64,000 nucleotides of DNA from Chiloscyllium plagiosum (lineage: Eukaryota): the NCBI RefSeq assembly GCF_004010195.1, contig NC_057713.1, positions 22,560,703 through 22,624,702 on the forward strand, read 5' to 3'. Below, one piece after another: positions 5,521-55,212 of the stretch. The notes under the pieces were generated by a model that saw only the letters and a list, made by a program, of their open reading frames with translations, was not told the DNA's origin and did no database searches. Numbering within the stretch: the first letter of the stretch is position 1; every line of letters begins with the position of its first letter. Made by a program: the position numbers and the translations under genes.

Positions 5521-6879
5521 TCTCTGCCTGGAAGTTTTGAGGTAAATTTAACAGATACCAGTCTGTTCTGACAATGAGGCTTCCACCAGCAAAGTGCCAA
5601 TGCTGATTTCAGGTGCTGAATTTTGTGATTTTACTTCATGTGCACATCTGATCTTGGCTCATCAGTACTGATTGCAACACCTGGAATATGTGCAATCACT
5701 TTATCTGTTATTATAAAGGGATAAATCTCTGGGATCTTTTTTCTTTATGGTTTTTGCTTTATGGTTGCCAATTTTTGGCCACATGGTCACTTTTATTTTT
5801 AAAGTGTGATCCAGAAATTTCAACTGCATGTGTCAGGCATTATCTGCTGGCATAGAATGGCACTCAATAAGATGAACAAGGTTTCAATGAAGGTTTATCA
5901 GTGACAAGAAATCCTCAGAACTCATGCTATAAATCCCCTTCCATTCCTCACTCCTTCACTGCATGAAACCTTGCCAGTTTTGGAGAGAAATGGGTGCAAG
6001 CCCTTTTGAATATATGCATTTAGCTCTTAATAAAATTGAAGTTTCAGATGGTAGGTAAATCCTTTGGATGTTTAGAATATGTGTACATACATTTGACTCA
6101 TATGGATATGGTGGGTTCAGGTATTCCCCCATCGAGACTTGAAAAAAAAAGTATTTCCCTCATTTCAACTGAAAATGGACATGCATGTGTGCATACGATC
6201 ATTAAAATCTGGAAATATATTTTTCCCATGACACAAAGCTTGAAAATAAAAGAATTCCAAAATGTAATTATTTTTAGTAAGAACTAACTGTGGTTACCAC
6301 ATCAGGCATATTGAACATAAAAATTGTCTCTTGCACAGAGGAACAATGTGTCCCAATGATTATTCACACATCTATTTCAGGAGAGACAGGTGTCATTTAC
6401 TCCAAAATTTGTTCTAGCAGGAACAATTTGGATCTGAGAAACTGAAGCAATTTTAATTTGAATTCATCTCGAAAGTGCAATGTGACTTTTTAAATTTTCA
6501 GTTCTGTGTTGTTACTGAGACTTAAATTATTTGTTAATTATTCATATAAGGAATTCATGTAAACTCGAAAAAACTTAAGCTTGAAAGATCCTTTGCCATG
6601 GGTTGGTGCCAAACCTGTCACCCGCTCTTTGACTCATCACTTTAATGATGGCATACTTACTTTTCTCCAGAGCATTTTCTTTACCACCTCCTTTCATTGC
6701 TTCCTTCTCTGTGTAGCTCCCAAACCCTTGGAACACTGTTACAGTGTGCATTTCTGTTCTAAGTCTGTGCCATTGGGAGAATGGAGCTGTAGTGCCTCTT
6801 GTTTTGGAAACAGGTTTGGCGGGCACTTGCTTGTTGATTTGATGACTTGTCCTGTACCTAAATAATTTGGCATGTTTAC

Positions 6880-7850
6880 AGAACGGTTGTGTTTTATTTT
6901 ACTATCGGGAGCAATGTAAACTGCCATTTCGTGGCTGGGAAGAAATATTTAATAATCTTCAAAGCTGTCTCAATATTGCCTCGACAACCTGTGAGGGGTT
7001 GAAAAGTAAATTGAAAGCCCGCTCTCAGGTAGCGAGTAACTGCTGCAATTTATTGATTTTTTTTATTGTTTTGTTTTCATTCGAAAAGACGGATCGCCTA
7101 CCTTTGCAAATATTGTTTAGATTGTCTTTTGACGTGTTCGTGCTATTTTGTGTGTGTGATCCGCTGTCACTAATCACTATTCTGATACCACTGGGAATAT
7201 TCTAGGCATCAATACATTTTCTTCTTTTGTGGATCGCGGGACCTGTTAAAGAGAGGAGCGGGAGCAGTTCCCGCAGCCTCAGAAAATTACTTTTGTTATT
7301 CTCTCCTAACCAGAGAATGTGGGAATGGAGATTTCACTGTTGAGTGTGTGTTTCGCTGTGGGAACGGCTGCGGTTTGGATGGGGGAGATGAATGGTCGTG
7401 CAAGTAGTTGGATTAATTCTGTACGTCGCTGTTTCATTTTTTTTTTGGGGGGGGGGAAATACATTTAAATATTGCTGTAAATGTTCCTTCTGCGTAGCCG
7501 AGCTGGTGCATCGCCCTGTGTCTGCATCTTTTTTTCCTGTTGTTTTTGGTGGATGTTTTGGGTTTGTTGCATTGATCCTGGCTCCTAATTTAAAGATGTG
7601 TCTGTATCTTCTCTCTTTTGGAAATTGTCAGCTTCGCCGTACAGGGGGTCTGGTCGAGCCGCGGCTGCAAGACGTTCCCCATTGACTCGTCACGTACAAA
7701 ATGCCAGTGTGACCGGCTCTCCAGCTTCGCCATTTTGGCTCAGCTCTCGTCAGATTCGGTAAGTCCTTTTTATTTATTATGATTATTTTGGAGGAAATAT
7801 TGCATTTCGTCTCAGGGGAGCGAAAAAAAAAATATGAACAGCGTGAGATC
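6880..7850. promoter_or_regulatory. Intragenic CpG island / candidate internal promoter at the GPS exon
   Basis: About 40 CpG in about 970 nt by hand count (12 in the 127-nt exon) versus under 10 in 8000-9000. No recognisable repeat in the block. Confidence 0.6.
7632..7758 (+). CDS. ADGRB1: ADGRB1 coding exon: GPS motif (C-terminal GAIN) and Stachel, [43 protein letters not shown]
   Basis: Pyrimidine tract plus ttgtcag acceptor; donor TCG|gtaagt. Translation (codons from 7633) has the GPS pattern W-S-x-x-G-C...T-x-C-x-C-D-R-L-S-x-F-A-I-L-A-Q-L typical of BAI proteins. 127 nt, phase 2 to phase 0. Confidence 0.96.
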
Positions 7851-10614
7851 TGCAGGTCAAATCACTGCCTTGCAACACCAACAGGGGCATGTCACCTGTG
7901 ATTAGAGACTGACATTTCAGTTCAGAAATCTGTATGTTTGGGACTGCTGCATCTATTAAGAAGCTGGCATTTGCCCACCGCTCCTGGCATTGGAATAAAT
8001 TGCAATCAGCATTGATTAAAATGCCCTGCCCAGATGGTTTCACCAGATATTAGTCTGAATTGCCATGTTTGTGGTCAGTTGCCTCAGATGTGGAGGAGTG
8101 AAACAGCTTAAGACTCAGAGATGCTGTCAAATACAAACCTGTTTTGCACATAAAAGTAAATACGCTGCAAGCAGCAAACCATCTCTATTCCTTAAGTGAC
8201 TATGAATGGATTACATAATTCTGTAGGAAAGAATTATCTAAATGAAATACTTATTTTGGAGCACAATATCTTTATCGGAATGTTCTCTAATGTTTTGATG
8301 AATATTCAGAGATTTGTTGAGTTCCAAGTATCAAAATGCTTATCTCTAATCAATGCAAATGATTTCATATTAGATAGAAATGATATGATCAGTTAGTGAC
8401 ATACTAAAATAAATAGCAAGTAATTTTATGCCAGGATGGTTGGCTAAGTGGTACAGCTATAAGATAAACATCTCCTAAACATTCCGCCATATGTGTTTTT
8501 TTTAAACTGCATTTAACTAAACAGTTTAGGAAACAATTGTGAGCTTGGCACCATGTGTCAGCAGAAGCTCATTCTTTTTGCAACTGCTGTACGTTATAAT
8601 AGCATGAGGAAGTCAAACTTTTGTACTCAACTGAACATGTTACATGGACCCAGATGATTCTCTCAGTTCCACGTAGTCGTCGAGATAAAATATAAAACTG
8701 TTAGATTATTTTGCTTACATTGCCATTGGAATTTAATCTTCATTTGAATGGACTAAGAGGAAGATGGATGCCAGTCATGCTGTCAGAAGGACACTGTTTA
8801 GAATGGTCCAAAATATGAGTTAAAGACCCTATGATCTTTTGGAATGTTATCTTGAATTAATAGCAATATAAGTCTATTCCTTTGATTTATTGGCAAGAGA
8901 GCTAAAGACTGTGTAGCTAAGGATTTTCGTTTGGTTTTATAAGCAAGTGTGACACACAACTAATATTGGCTATTAATGCTTCATTTAGATACATATTATT
9001 TAATGATTATATCATTAAATATAGAGTCAGTGCTTGCTTACATACATGTGTACCTGTATGTTAAATGAAATGACAGTTATCCTAATCGTTCTCCTATAGT
9101 TAATTCTGTACTGAAAATGCAAGTGTCTGTGCATGTGTTGTTACAATGGAATGTTTATGTAACAAATTCATATTGAATGTTTTTTGATAAAACTTTTCAA
9201 ATTAACAGCAAAATATAACTACCATGTCTGCACAAGTTATGGTCTTATGTGAAAATCAGCAGTTGGTATATGTGACATACAAATAGAATATTGTGACTGC
9301 ACCATCAAGCAGTCAAGCTAGCTTTTGCATTCAAAGGATTTTTTTTTTTGTTGATGGTATAAATAACAGGAAACCAAGCAGGTCAGGCAGCATCTGAAAG
9401 GCAAAGATGAAATCTTAGTAAGGGTATGAGTTGAAGATCTATTGGAATCTCTGGAAATTTTACTTATTAGCTTAATCAGTGGGTGATATTAGCATTTAAT
9501 TTTCTTAGCAAACATGTGTTTGACTCTTAGTTATTGCTTGCTGAAGTGATGTATAACTGAAATAGATTTTGATTATAAATGTTCGATTTGTTGCAAAGTT
9601 ATTGATTATGAGATAAAATTATTCCATGAAAGGCATAATATTGCTTCACAAACATTGTTGGTAGTAACTAATTGGTTTATGCTGTTGTAAAGTTTCATTT
9701 GGCCTCTGACCACTGGCATTAATTGGTCTTCCAGTGAGTTTACAAACTGTCTGGATCTTGCGGGGGGTGCAGGGGGGTGGGGCGGTGTTATGTGTACCTC
9801 TTCCAATCCAGTTTATATGAAAGTGACAATGAAACAGATCTGTGGTGGGGATCTGGGAATCCAGCAGAGAGAAATTCTCTGCCTGCCCACCCTTGTTCTT
9901 GCCTCCACATCAGTGTCAAAATCTTGCTCCTTGTCTCAGTTGGCAGTCCTTTCAGTTCGAGACCCAAACATTGCTGGTTGACCATTGCAGGGTTGCTTGA
10001 GCACTTGAATTAGAAGGGAGCAATGCTAATATAGTGTTATGGTGTGGAAGGGAGAGACTTTGGAATAAAATATTAAATGAAGGTAATGGCTTGTTTGGTA
10101 ATATATCGAAAATCCTATTGTTTGAAAAAGAGCACAAACTTCTCAAGGTGAAATGTTGATCAGGGCGCCATCTTTATAATGGCAAGAAAACTCAAATAGG
10201 CAATGTTTTTGTTTCTGCTGTTTTGGGAGATTCGTTGATGAAAAGTATTCCACTTTCACCCACATTAAAACTATGACTACAGTCTTTCAGTGCTTTTCTA
10301 GTTATAAAGTGATTTGGAAAGTCTGAGGTCATAAAACACACCACATAAATGCAAGTTCTTCCCTTCTATGGCAAAGGACATTCCATTGCAAATGGTGTGA
10401 AGTGCTTTCAGATATTTTAACGGTAAGAATCTTGATAAATGTCAATTTTTATTTGAACCCATTTAAGGTCAAGATATGTATTTAAATTCTCATATCAGGG
10501 GACACTAAGCAGTCCTGCAGTCTTTCTAACTGAATGGTAGTTTTGCCAATAGTAGCAAGCATAGAACTTGCTTTACATTGTTAGCTTATCCAGCAATACC
10601 ATGATATTTTGTTA

Positions 10615-16176: not shown

Positions 16177-17526
16177 ATAGAGTCATAGAGATGTACAGAC
16201 CCTTTGGTCCAACCCATCCATGCCGACTAGATATCCCAAACCAATCTAGTCCCACCTGCCAGCACCCGGCCCATATCCCTCCAAATCCTTCCTATTCATA
16301 TACCCATCCAAATGCTTCTTAAATGTTGCAATTGTACCAGTCTCCACCACTTCCTCTGGCAGCTCATTTCATACACGTATCACCCTCTGTGTGAAAAAGT
16401 TACCTCTTAGGTCTCTTTTATATCTTTCCCCTCTCACCCTAAACCTATGCCCTCTAGTTCTGGATTCCCCGACCCCAGGGAAAAGACTTTGTCTTTTATC
16501 CTATCCATGCCCCTCATAATTTTGTAAACCTCTATAAGGTCACTCCTCAGCTTCCGACACTCCAGGGAAAATAGTTCCAGCCAGTTCAGCCTCTCCCTAT
16601 AGCTCAAATCCTCCAACCCTGGCAACATCCTTGTAAATCTTTTCTGAACCCGTTCAAGTTTCACAACATCTTTCCGATAGGAAGGAGACTAGAATTGCAC
16701 AGAATATTCCAACAGTGGCCTAACCAATGTCCTGTACAACTGCAACATGACCTCCAACTCCTGTACTCAATATTCAGTCCAACAAAGGAAAGCATACCAA
16801 ACGCCTTCTTCACTATTCTGTCTACCTGCAACTCCACTTTCAAGGAGCTATGAACCTGCACTCCAAAGTCTCTTTGTTCAGCAACACTCCCTAGGATCTT
16901 ACCATTAAGTGTATAAGTCCTGCTAAGATTTGCTTTCTCAAAATGCAGCACCTCGCATTTATCTGAATTAAATTCCATCTGCCATTTCTTAGCCCATTGA
17001 TCCATCTGATCACGATCCCGTTGTAATCTCAGGTAACCTTCTTCACTGTCCACCATACCTCCAATTTTGGTGTCATCTGCAAACTTATTAACTGTACCTC
17101 TTATGCTCGCATCCAAATCATTTATACAAATGACAAAAATTAGAGGGCCCAGCACTGATCCTTGTGACACTCCACTGGTCTCAGGCCTCCAGTCTGAAAA
17201 ACAACCCTCCACCACCACCCTCTGTCTTCTACCTTTGAGCCAGTTCTGTATCCAAATGGCTAGTTTCCCCTGTACTCCGTGAGATCTAAACTTGCAAACC
17301 AGTCTCCTTGCAAACCTTGTCGAATGCCTCACTGAAGTCCATATAGATCACGTCTACTGCTCTGACCTCATTGATCCTCTTTGTTACTTCTTCACAAAAC
17401 TCAATTAAGTTTGTGAGACATGATTTCCCATGCACAAAGCCATGTTGACCATCCCTAATCTGTCCTTGCCTTTTCAAATATATGTACATCCTGTCCCTCA
17501 GGATTCCCTTCAACAATTTGCCCACT
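16177..17526 (-). mobile_element. Young 5'-truncated CR1 (HER1-like) LINE, frameshifted RT
   Basis: ORFs 17286-17525, 16661-17332 and 16434-16664(-) give QHGF..GKSCLTNLIEF, DVIYMDFS.AFDKV, GVSQGSVLGP, KFADDTKIGG, LERVQKRFTRM; tail GACTCTAT on the minus strand. Confidence 0.97.
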
Positions 17527-23523: not shown

Positions 23524-24344
23524 ATCTTTCGAGGAACTTAGGGCAAGGCTTTTGGGTGGACTTCTGAACTCGATCGGCAGGTTGAAATGTCAGTCAGAAC
23601 CCTGGGCTGTGGTCAATGATTAGCCTTTTAGCCAGGCAGCCAATTAATGGCTCAAGAGTGGGCTTGTTATCTTATTAAGGATGGCAGGCCAGCCCTCAAA
23701 GTTAGAGGGACCATGACTGATAACAAGGCCACGTAAAAGTAGTGTGGCAGCTGGGGGGTGGGGTCTTAACAAGGCAGCCTTCAGCTACTGAGGCAAAGTG
23801 ACCTACGTAGAGTGCTAAATCAGCCCAATCTCTCTCCCACCCACTTCCCTCCCCATCCCCTTTCCCACTGCACAGTTAAACAGACGTCCACTGCTCATAG
23901 GGATGTGGAAATTGACCCAGAAAAATCCTAGCTGATCTTTAAAAACCTAATTGATTAGACACTGTATGTGGGCAGATAGCATTGTCACTCCTTCATCGTT
24001 CCCATTAGTCCCCTCAAGCCCCACAAAAATGAGATGCAACCAAGGAATCGGCACTCAGGCTTGTGGTGCTCTTTTTATTTTTGCTTCCTGGACTCAGCAC
24101 AACCTAAAACTCAAGCCTTTTCTCTCTTGTTATGTGCCACATCAAAGATTTAACGTCAATTAACTTGATGGTCTAGCAAATGTCACATGATATAAACACA
24201 GCGATTTTCCCCAGATACTTTAACATGCTGTAGAAAAATTTCATTACATCATGTTTTAAAGCTTGATAGTGATAATTAATTTCATGAAAGTATTCACTGA
24301 GAGCTTTGATTTCTAACAGCTTCTTCATTCTGGCTTTCTCCTAG

Positions 24345-24448
24345 AACATGGACAAAGTGATCCTGCCTTCGGTCACTCTAATTGTTGGCTGTGGAGTTTC
24401 CTCGTTGACTCTCCTACTGCTAATCATTATTTATGTATCTGTCTGGAG
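24345..24448 (+). CDS. ADGRB1: ADGRB1 coding exon: TM1, [34 protein letters not shown](R)
   Basis: ctttctcctag acceptor, GAG|gtaatg donor; 104 nt, phase 0 to 2. Matches recalled human BAI1 [35 protein letters not shown]. Confidence 0.97.
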
Positions 24449-33060: not shown

Positions 33061-33163
33061 GTACATTCGGTCAGAACGGTCGGTAATTTTAATAAACTTC
33101 TGCCTGTCAATCATTTCATCAAATGCTCTTATCCTGATAGGACAAACTCAGACAAGAAATAAA
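33061..33163 (+). CDS. ADGRB1: ADGRB1 coding exon: ICL1-TM2, (R)[34 protein letters not shown]
   Basis: ttgcag acceptor, AAA|gtaagt donor; 103 nt, phase 2 to 0. Peptide matches recalled BAI1 (ends QTQTRNK). Confidence 0.97.
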
Positions 33164-34243: not shown

Positions 34244-34579
34244 GATGGAAATGTGTTGCTGGAAAAGCGCAGCAGGTCAGGCAGCATCTAGGGAACAGGA
34301 GAATCGACGTTTCGGGCATTAGCCCTTCTTCAGGAATGAGGACAGTTTGTCCAGCAGGCTAAGATAAAAGATAGGGAGGAGGGACTTGGGGGAGGGGCGT
34401 CAGTCCCTCCTCCCTATCTTTTATCTTAGCCTGCTGGACAAACTGTCCTCATTCCTGAAGAAGGGCTAGTGCCCGAAACGTCGATTCTCCTGTTCCCTAG
34501 ATGCTGCCTGACCTGCTGCGCTTTTCCAGCAACACATTTCCATCTCTGATCTCCAGCATCTGCAGACCTCACTTTCTCC
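34244..34579 (+). mobile_element. Penelope-like fold-back element (family 1): 143-bp inverted arms, 15-bp TSD
   Basis: Arms 34244-34386 and 34402-34544 are complementary at 142/143 positions; TSD TTAGAG(G/A)GATATGGG at 34230-34244 and 34580-34594. Confidence 0.9.
34451..34486 (+). ncRNA. Minimal type I hammerhead ribozyme motif with intact core (mirror copy 34302-34337, minus strand)
   Basis: attc-CTGAAGA-a-GGGC-tagt-GCCC-GAAA-C-GTC-gatt: core CUGANGA and GAAA, 4-bp stem II, palindromic ACGU stem III, GUC site ending at 34482. Stem I is weak (U-U mismatch). Confidence 0.7.
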
Positions 34580-36194: not shown

Positions 36195-36521
36195 GTCGAA
36201 TCCAGCAAAAAGAGGCCAGTCAACCCATTTTGTTGTCACTGACCTTCTGAAGAGCATTCCAACCAGACCTACAACCTCCACTCTTTCCTTGCATTTCCCA
36301 TGGCTAATCCACCTAGCCTGCACATCCCTAGACACTTTAGGGTAATTTAGTATGGGCAATCCACTTTATCTGTACATCTTTGGTCTGTGGAAAGAAATCA
36401 GGGCACCCAGCGGAAACCTGCAGACACATGGAGAACATGCAAACTCAACGCAGTCACCTGAGGCTAGTACTGAACCTGCGTACTTGGCACTTTGAGGCAC
36501 CACTGCTAATCGCTGTGCCAC
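36195..36521 (-). mobile_element. HE1-type SINE, older, first nucleotides missing
   Basis: Reverse complement gtggcacagcgattagcagtggtgcctc...ggttcagtac...gagtttgcatgttctcc...tttagggatgtgcaggctaggtggattagccatggg-like core. Confidence 0.85.
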
Positions 36522-36529
36522 ACGAAGGG

Positions 36530-36602
36530 CATTGGATCAGGGACTTAAACCCTGACCCCTCAGATTAAAAGTCTGATGCTCTACCGACTGAGCCACCCCG
36601 GC
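36530..36602 (-). pseudogene. tRNA-Lys(UUU) pseudogene
   Basis: Reverse complement GCCGGGGTGGCTCAGTCGGTAGAGCATCAGACTTTTAATCTGAGGGGTCAGGGTTTAAGTCCCTGATCCAATG. D arm and TTT anticodon arm match vertebrate tRNA-Lys(UUU); the acceptor stem has 3 mismatches and the T-loop reads TTT instead of TTC. Confidence 0.88.
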
Positions 36603-47614: not shown

Positions 47615-47765
47615 GTAATCTGTACCCTAGTGGCAGCGTTTCTGCATTTTTTCTTCCTTTCATCATTCTGCTGGGTGCTGACAGAGGCCTGGCAATCATA
47701 TATGGCTGTCACAGGAAGATTACGAAATCGAATCATCAGGAAACGGTTCCTTTGTCTGGGATGGG
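47615..47765 (+). CDS. ADGRB1: ADGRB1 coding exon: TM3-ICL2, [50 protein letters not shown](G)
   Basis: Long pyrimidine tract plus ccag acceptor, GGG|gtaagt donor; 151 nt, phase 0 to 1. [17 protein letters not shown] is the BAI1 form; BAI3 as recalled has [17 protein letters not shown]. Confidence 0.97.
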
Positions 47766-52204: not shown

Positions 52205-53732
52205 AAATTGATATGTGCATTTCAAGCAGAGTCAGCACGGCTTCATGAAAGGGAAATCGTATTTGACTAATTTTGAGTAAGACTCAACCAGAGTGGATAG
52301 AGGGGAACTTAACGGTGTGTTGTATTTGGACTTAATGTCATTTGACAAGGTATCTCTCAAAATGTTAGGACATAAGATTACGACAGTGCAGGGTGGCACG
52401 GTGGCTCAGTGGTTAGCAATGCTGCCTTGCAGCGCCAGGGACCCGTGTCTGTGTGGGTTTTCTCCGTGTGCTCCGGTTTCCTCCCACAGGCCAGGTGAAT
52501 TGGCCGTGCTAAATTGCCCATAGTGATAGGTGCATTAGTAGGGAGTAGGGGAATGGGTCTGGGTGGATTACTTTTCGGAGGGTCGTTGTGGACTTGGTGG
52601 GCCAAAGGGCCTGTTTCCGCACTGTAGGGAATCTAATCTAGTATATTAGCAGAAATAGAGAATTGGCTATTGGGCAGGAAATAGTCAATGGAATTGAGGT
52701 TCTTTATCAGGTTGATGACTTGTGACCAGTGAAGTCCAACAGGGATACGTACTGGGACTGCAATTATTTATAATATGTTTAAGTGACAGAGGAAGGAGGT
52801 GGGTGTACTGCAGCCAAATTGGCACAGGACAGAAAAATAGATGGAAACACGGGTCATTACAAGGATCCATACAGTATATAGAGAGATATTGATAGATTAA
52901 GTAAACAAGCAAAGATAGGCAAATAGAATATAATGTGGGAAAAAGTAAAATTCATAATGTAAGGGAGAACAAAAGGACAGAATTATTTAAATGGAGAAAA
53001 CCTGCAGAAAGCTTAACACAAAGAGACTTCGGGATACTTGTGCATAAAACACAAGAAGTTAGCATTCAACTGCAGCAAATAATAGGAAGGCTAACAGAAT
53101 GTTGTCCCTTTTTTCAAAGTGGTTGGATTATAAGAGATGGGGAGTTTTCCCAAAACTGTACAAGATACTGGTGAGTCCACATCTGGAGTACTGAGAGCAG
53201 TTTTGGCCCCCTTAATTTTGGAAATATTTCATTTAGAGGCAGTTCAGAGAAGGTCGACTCAGATGATCCCTTTTATGAGACGATTGTCTTCTGAGCAGAG
53301 GCTAAACAGGTTGAGAATCTACTCACTGCAGTTTAGAAGAATGGGAGGTGATCTTATTGAAATATGTAAGATTCTTAAAGGGACTGGCAGGGTAAATACT
53401 GAGAGTGTATTTATGGGAGAGTCACGGACCGAAGGATGTAGTCTCAGTAAAGGGGTGCCAATTGAAGACTGAGATGAGGAAGAAATCCTTCTCTCAGAGG
53501 GTTGTAAATCTTTGAAACACCTTGACACAGCAGCTATGGGGGCAGATTCCTTGTGGATGTTGAAGGCTGAAATAGATGGATTATTTATTGTTAGGGGATC
53601 AAGGGTAACAAGGAAAGGGCAGAAAACTGGATGTGAGGAATGTCTCATTAGCCATGATTCTGTTGATGCCAAAGCAGGCTCAAGGGACCGAAAGGCTACT
53701 GTTGTTACTAAGTCTTAATGTTCTTATGGCCT
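52205..53732 (+). mobile_element. Decayed CR1 RT-to-3' fragment hosting a HE1 copy
   Basis: cagcacggcttcatgaaagggaaatcg (QHGFMKGKS); ORF 53137-53472 LEAVQRRSTQMIP..GDLIE..ESRT; CR1 3' UTR. Confidence 0.9.
52391..52640 (+). mobile_element. HE1-type SINE with two internal deletions (B-box lost)
   Basis: gggacccg|tgtctgtgtggg and cccacag|gccaggtg junctions relative to 37818 and 50455; intact AATCT tail. Confidence 0.9.
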
Positions 53733-55142: not shown

Positions 55143-55212
55143 GTCTTCCAGCCCTAGTTGTGGCAACATCTGTTGGATTTACCAAATCAAAGGGATATGG
55201 AACAGTGAACTA
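55143..55212 (+). CDS. ADGRB1: ADGRB1 coding exon: TM4-ECL2, (G)LPALVVATSVGFTKSKGYGTVN(Y)
   Basis: ttattttag acceptor, CTA|gtgagt donor; 70 nt, phase 1 to 2. Continues the frame of the previous exon. Confidence 0.96.

Follow-up and report, generated by a model that had tools for sequence, protein, structure and literature searches.

A CpG-rich segment at the GPS exon of shark ADGRB1 as a candidate counterpart of the mammalian intron-17 promoter

The window analyzed here is a stretch of 64,000 nucleotides of the Chiloscyllium plagiosum genome (contig NC_057713.1, positions 22,560,703 to 22,624,702). Based on homology and splice structure, it contains exons 18–22 of the shark ADGRB1/BAI1 gene, in the human exon numbering of PMC11711277. 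The exons were mapped by tblastn of named shark ADGRB1 proteins together with inspection of the splice sites. All five lie on the + strand and are flanked by AG...GT, and joined in order they give a single open frame that runs from the GPS through the first transmembrane helices. Exon 18 (7632–7758, 127 nt) carries the GPS motif and the Stachel, with Arg, not His, at P-2. Exon 19 (24345–24448) encodes the end of the stalk and TM1 and includes an ATG at 24348–24350, and exons 20, 21, and 22 occupy 33061–33163, 47615–47765, and 55143–55212, respectively. The 42 residues of the GPS exon (7633–7758) are 98–100% identical to named shark ADGRB1 proteins, 86% identical to those of rays, and 78% identical to that of a frog; they match the Pfam GPS (E = 3e-11), and their best PDB match is the GAIN domain of BAI3. 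Exons 17 and 23 gave no match in the window by exact 5-mer search or tblastn, so intron 17 is longer than 7.6 kb.

The maximal-scoring CpG segment of the window lies at 6884–7843 (log-odds 32–34, next best ~10) and spans exon 18 together with the 3′ end of intron 17 before it and the beginning of intron 18 after it, with no strand assigned. A sequence-only reading of this DNA had singled out 6880–7850 as its one CpG-dense, repeat-free block, and the scan of CpG observed/expected (O/E) ratios bears this out. These 971 nt hold 40 CpG at an O/E of 0.92 and a GC content of 42.8%, versus an O/E of 0.21 and a GC content of 39% for the whole window, and other 971-nt windows contain 7.3 CpG on average and 20 at most. 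The excess has a P of ~4e-8 (negative-binomial, after ×66 correction). In the intronic part alone, 25 of the 40 CpG are found where 5.7 are expected (P = 2e-9), and the 750 nt upstream of exons 19–22 contain 7, 4, 7, and 5 CpG. The counts given earlier for exons 18–22 (12, 2, 3, 4, and 0 CpG, with four TCG codons in the GPS exon) proved exact. Moreover, the TpG+CpA O/E is 1.06 in the island versus 1.30 window-wide, as expected where the decay of methylated C has been spared. Approximately 830 nt downstream of the island, at 8672–8682, three CpG are tightly clustered, possibly by chance.

The earlier label of CpG island holds by O/E and depends otherwise on the rule applied. No window passes the Takai-Jones thresholds (at least 500 nt, GC at least 55%, O/E at least 0.65), the island GC being 43%. 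The Gardiner-Garden thresholds (at least 200 nt, GC at least 50%, O/E at least 0.6) are reached within the island only by an unstranded core at 7490–7826; one further such window, 52307–52512, overlaps a repeat. By the pattern used for cold-blooded vertebrates, a raised O/E (0.92 vs. 0.21) at nearly unchanged GC (43% vs. 39%), the segment does qualify, and it resembles a fish-type non-methylated island. Such islands in zebrafish combine a high CpG O/E with background GC and are likewise poorly caught by mammalian rules, as described in the available text of Long et al. (PMC3583005). Unlike those islands, the shark one is intragenic, away from the main start site, and is known here from its CpG content. 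Within the accessible part of PMC5437953, the genome of a chondrichthyan, the elephant shark, is reported to be globally methylated except at the start sites of expressed genes. Given this pattern, the retained CpG would point to lasting germ-line hypomethylation of the segment.

The claim that the block is free of repeats also stands as far as copies within the window are concerned: self-BLAST, which detects only repeats with a second copy there, gave no match in 6500–8200, and the three runner-up CpG segments are 60–91% repeat-covered by the same measure. The two intronic ORFs scanned gave no Pfam match above the cut-off, the tandem-repeat scan returned nothing in the island, and Rfam gave no match in 6500–8200 at E ≤ 1, with a single tRNA-like match in the whole window. 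A transposon origin of the CpG-rich sequence is not supported: neither repeat similarity (self-BLAST within the window) nor retroelement-protein similarity (Pfam) was found. A scan with consensus motifs found no TATA, GC-box, NRF1, BANP, RFX, or RE1 motif in the island; it returned isolated CRE half-sites and one YY1-like site, which are not informative. GC skew was also set aside as support, being +0.21 over 6760–7631, yet equally high in ~9% of windows.

In human and mouse, ADGRB1 has a promoter where intron 17 meets exon 18, documented by H3K4me3, ATAC, Iso-Seq, luciferase assays, and an exon-2 knockout (Parag et al., PMC11711277), and the sequence-only reading had cited it correctly. Most of the mammalian short transcripts use the exon-19 ATG, which leaves five extracellular residues without the Stachel, and a few use a new ATG that gives ~60 residues including the GPS (PMC11711277). 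By our own sum of Table S1 of that paper, 287 of 395 mouse long reads start at the intron-17 promoter, a count uncorrected for long-read length bias. The shark island covers ~750 nt upstream of the GPS exon, matching the mammalian promoter position. The two systems share the gene, the intron 17/exon 18 junction, the exon-19 ATG, and a predicted ~5 extracellular residues. In contrast, the mammalian promoter has been shown by chromatin marks, Iso-Seq, reporter, and knockout, whereas its candidate shark counterpart is deduced from sequence; furthermore, base composition differs, with 43% GC in the AT-rich shark island and 89% GC in one of the mouse alternative first exons (PMC11711277). The mechanism is already published for mammals; we did not find its possible age or the two-Met pattern described below in print. 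Our literature search, largely confined to papers outside subscription, found no non-mammalian report of an ADGRB1 internal promoter. Non-mammals are not treated in PMC11711277 or in the available parts of two 2026 reviews, and the BAI1 review is there silent on conservation and zebrafish.

After splicing, the ATG at 24348–24350 has A at −3 and G at +4, which is the strong Kozak context previously attributed to it, and by its position in the junction it is the codon orthologous to the human/mouse short-isoform start. The sole ATG of exon 18 opens a three-codon out-of-frame uORF (7701–7712, + strand, A at −3), as had been stated; in the spliced transcript, 49 nt separate its stop from the downstream exon-19 ATG. 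The earlier survey of ATGs, sound for the GPS exon, overlooked nine more in the intronic part of the island, including an in-frame one at 7392. Two hypothetical first exons can be drawn on the + strand. For a non-coding one at 6884–7028, the best candidate donors score 6.2 bits (7006) and 5.2 bits (7029), and its single ATG is a start-stop at 6914; ending at 7005 or 7028, it would avoid all intronic uORFs except this start-stop, and would have the layout of the main mouse transcripts. A coding one at 7392–7420 would run from ATG 7392 to a donor at 7421, in frame to exon 18. It adds 10 hydrophobic residues, the first nine of which match the N-terminus of the gene model GCC25907.1 (P0154); that model may have been predicted ab initio, and its species may be this one or a near relative. 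The donor at 7421 is a poor one: by an approximate matrix it scores 2.2 bits, at the 79th percentile among all GT, and the real donors score 6.9–9.7 bits. Moreover, out-of-frame ATGs precede ATG 7392. The product would have an N-terminus of ~58 aa, paralleling the human form with 60 aa, and would keep the GPS and the Stachel. The absence of the Stachel proposed earlier would thus apply to the exon-19 ATG product and not to this form.

To compare the stalk across vertebrates, we used a single record for each genus, always one whose GPS-TM1 junction was intact, which gave 87 genera, 83 with a stalk of regular length and four irregular ones that were set aside. All 83 carry a Met either at the exon-19 codon or at the final codon of exon 18, which lies two codons upstream. 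Both are present in 56 genera; 20 have only the exon-19 Met (chondrichthyans, mammals, bichir, bowfin, and some teleosts), seven have only the exon-18 Met (two lizards, four frogs, and one caecilian), and none has neither, so that 76 of the 83 have the exon-19 ATG codon. This Met position is always followed by Asp or Glu, which places G at +4, and is preceded by Asn, Ser, Ile, or Thr. Two of 176 records have no stalk Met (Naja and Sinocyclocheilus), and both are irregular models. Compensation between the two Mets is not significant (Fisher P = 0.13). On a tree that excludes the four irregular genera, Rhincodon, and Salmo, includes four short models, and misplaces lungfish and mammals, all five losses of the exon-19 Met fall in lineages holding the exon-18 Met (P = 0.17). 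The two-Met pattern is compatible with selection for an initiator and is not proof of it.

The P-2 residue of the GPS is Arg in 80 of the 83 genera, Lys in two, Ser in one, and His in none, and is Arg in the window. His at this position (His-Leu/Ile-Ser/Thr) is given as the norm for GPS autoproteolysis in the accessible sections of PMC13197933, and by this residue the GPS of the window is not of the canonical self-cleaving type. Cleavage of the human BAI1 GPS is reported despite the missing His (PMC11711277). Around the site itself (7714–7728), homologues show Arg at +2 in rays, Phe at −1 in Heterodontus, and Ala at +1 in one bird.

Short gene models were collected by a protein search with the shark C-terminal half, beginning at the exon-19 Met, as the query. 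Of the best 120 of 388 matches, the 118 with a name were used; matches without a reference name were excluded from all counts. The sample is biased both by the query's start at this Met and by the limit to 120 matches. Among these 118, the start lies at the exon-19 Met in 46, at the Met in the last codon of exon 18 in 19, and elsewhere in 53. RefSeq "B1-like" isoforms starting at the exon-19 Met number, among the matches listed, three in Carcharodon, five in Cetorhinus, and four in Hemiscyllium, and a model of the coelacanth Latimeria likewise starts there; the contigs of these models measure 144–384 Mb. These short models of sharks stand as "-like" loci of their own and could result from split annotation. 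Upstream of the exon-19 Met, the nearest in-frame Met is 142 aa away, and any model break within this span would therefore produce the same start. Among birds, turtles, and frogs, many of the listed models begin at the exon-19 Met although the exon-18 Met is present in these groups, as a model break in intron 18 would explain. The 19 models with an exon-18 start, from 15 genera of birds, squamates, frogs, and teleosts, include exon 18 with no in-frame start ahead of it, and projection from mammalian proteins is an unlikely source for them. They weigh more because they include exon 18 and use a Met absent in the sampled mammals. A Met-start short isoform was found in none of six exact look-ups in sharks and rays with full-length models (Met-start C-terminal stretches of Chiloscyllium, twice, Stegostoma, Scyliorhinus, Heterodontus, and Pristis), a procedure that misses other splice forms, and four small full-length clusters contained no Met-start isoform. 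In 80 of the 118 listed matches, homology starts at reference residues 910–922, but this tally is biased by the query and by the selection funnel and was not accepted as evidence by itself. A Neotoma model (P0109) joins a novel Gly/Ala-rich N-terminus to mid-exon 18 and resembles mouse transcript 41/5 of PMC11711277.

Collectively, these results make it fairly probable that the island is unmethylated and marks an internal promoter of the shark gene that shares its descent with the mammalian intron-17 promoter, and from which a Stachel-less 7TM receptor would be made. This explanation is supported because the CpG excess is large, spans intron and exon, and is absent at the other four exons, and because its position matches the proven human/mouse promoter. 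The short models of three sharks and the coelacanth, the models with an exon-18 start, and the retention of a Met in all 83 genera lend it indirect support; the possible splitting of the shark models, the six negative look-ups, and the lack of TATA, GC-box, and NRF1 motifs weigh against it. In all likelihood the feature represents, in the shark, a promoter known from mammals. Of the ancient promoter proposed by the sequence-only reading, the orthologous junction and ATG codon hold; promoter activity in the shark and common ancestry are inferred, the protein models being ambiguous evidence. In the mechanism we propose, the germ-line unmethylated island would license transcription from the end of intron 17, with starts in its last ~750 nt. 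At the 5′ end, exon 18 would either be extended upstream or be joined by splicing to a short non-coding first exon, and it would serve as 5′ UTR in the shortest isoform. Ribosomes would scan past the three-codon uORF, or re-initiate after it, and start at ATG 24348. The product would be a 7TM-plus-tail receptor of ~620–725 aa, a size taken from shark models truncated at this point, with ~5 extracellular residues and without the adhesion domains, GAIN, and Stachel. A minor form from ATG 7392 may keep the GPS and the Stachel.

The short receptor would most likely signal tonically and scaffold intracellular partners without the need for an adhesion ligand. This role appears the likeliest because G-protein signaling by B1 depends little on the Stachel, as summarized in the available text of the review PMC13197933, and because a stalkless BAI1 mutant retains surface delivery and activity (cited in PMC11711277). 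The authors of PMC11711277 speculated that the short form acts as a sink for shed ectodomains. Related transcripts are common among adhesion GPCRs: in the accessible portions of PMC6667449 and PMC11039983, CTF-type transcripts of Adgrd1, Bai3, Lphn2, and other genes, known from mouse and human transcript assemblies, likewise start near the GPS/7TM boundary and give N-truncated receptors without autoproteolysis. The CTF form of ADGRD1 showed no increase in basal activity; for B1, in contrast, signaling reportedly proceeds for the most part without the Stachel. The ADGRB1 paralogue Adgrb3 likewise keeps short isoforms from an alternative promoter in mouse, according to a table of PMC13197933, and eliminating both Adgrb3 forms required targeting exons 2 and 18, as stated in the part of that review available. 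From PMC13322242, on BAI3, came background and no data on a promoter, and PMC9723945 and PMC12953806 contributed nothing further.

An unmethylated island need not be a BAI1 promoter. It could instead be an intragenic enhancer, a poised or Polycomb-type island, or an antisense or non-coding start, with no short BAI1 protein in the shark. We consider this unlikely, although several observations agree with it: CpG retention reports the germ-line methylation state and not transcription, the core promoter motifs scanned for are missing from the island, the six exact look-ups yielded no short isoform, and an exon 18 extended into the intron could be translated less well because of the nine ATGs there. 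However, the position coincides with a proven mammalian promoter, Met-start models exist in three sharks and the coelacanth, and the candidate first exon ending at 7005 or 7028 would bypass the intronic uORFs apart from one start-stop. It is less probable still that a real internal promoter arose independently in sharks and mammals at a GPS/7TM boundary that repeatedly attracts start sites. Such recurrence finds some support in the prediction of CTF-type transcripts for 67% of the mouse adhesion GPCR genes examined, in the available text of PMC6667449, and in their description in human, in that of PMC11039983. In contrast, starts at the exon 18/19 Met pair occur in listed models of sharks, coelacanth, teleosts, frogs, reptiles, birds, and mammals, a spread for which one origin is the simpler account.

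That the CpG excess stems from coding constraint, an unrecognized transposon fragment, or chance is very improbable. Exon 18 is GC-rich (59%), its 12 CpG barely exceed the 8.0 expected from random synonymous codons (P = 0.06), and self-BLAST is blind to a repeat with a single copy in the window. However, the intronic part shows its own strong excess and has no repeat, Rfam, or above-cut-off Pfam match, and exons 19–22 are depleted (9 CpG vs. 20.9 expected); at their depletion, exon 18 would be expected to hold ~3.5 CpG rather than 12 (P = 3e-4). Coding constraint does not account for the excess, because 25 CpG are intronic, the flanks of the other exons are poor in CpG, and exons 19–22 are depleted, unlike exon 18.

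If the island marks a promoter shared with mammals, its position suggests, short of proof, a second start site as old as the jawed vertebrates, which by the divergence quoted in the accessible part of PMC5437953 could mean ~465 million years. A bolder reading, which we hold only tentatively and regard as somewhat doubtful, is that the internal promoter belongs to all jawed vertebrates, may even predate the ADGRB1/ADGRB3 duplication, and has for over 450 million years made an ectodomain-less and Stachel-less receptor as a major brain product. Selection would have kept its initiator Met, which would have moved back and forth between exon 18, at the last codon, and exon 19, at the second. The main source of the BAI1 C-terminal receptor would then be transcription rather than self-cleavage, because the BAI1 GPS is without the catalytic His in every sampled genus. 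On this bolder reading, ADGRB1 would be two genes in one. The mammalian short BAI1 isoforms, for which no function is known, could be lineage-specific noise; a shark counterpart, if real, would show long-term selection for a Stachel-less, adhesion-independent BAI1. This bears on how far adhesion GPCRs need tethered agonism and autoproteolysis, as well as on the interpretation of exon-2 knockouts, and the isoform would be testable by deletion of the promoter or the ATG in zebrafish, frog, or chick.

The introns of the window hold several further features. Ahead of exon 19, a second AG at 24318–24319, with a pyrimidine-rich stretch upstream, lies 25 nt before the acceptor; its use would frameshift the long isoform and not an isoform starting at ATG 24348. 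Intron 18 contains a LINE remnant on the − strand, at 16664–17347, in which a 228-codon open stretch matches Pfam RVT_1 (E = 9e-17). In intron 20, a near-perfect inverted repeat of ~300 nt at 34244–34544 is 95% identical to its own reverse complement, and other repeat copies in the window resemble its arms. In the pre-mRNA it could fold into a long hairpin; alternatively, it could have arisen as an error of assembly. Finally, the tRNA-like Rfam match (36533–36598, − strand, 50.6 bits) lies just beyond a repeat copy at 36327–36521 and is probably the head of a tRNA-derived SINE.
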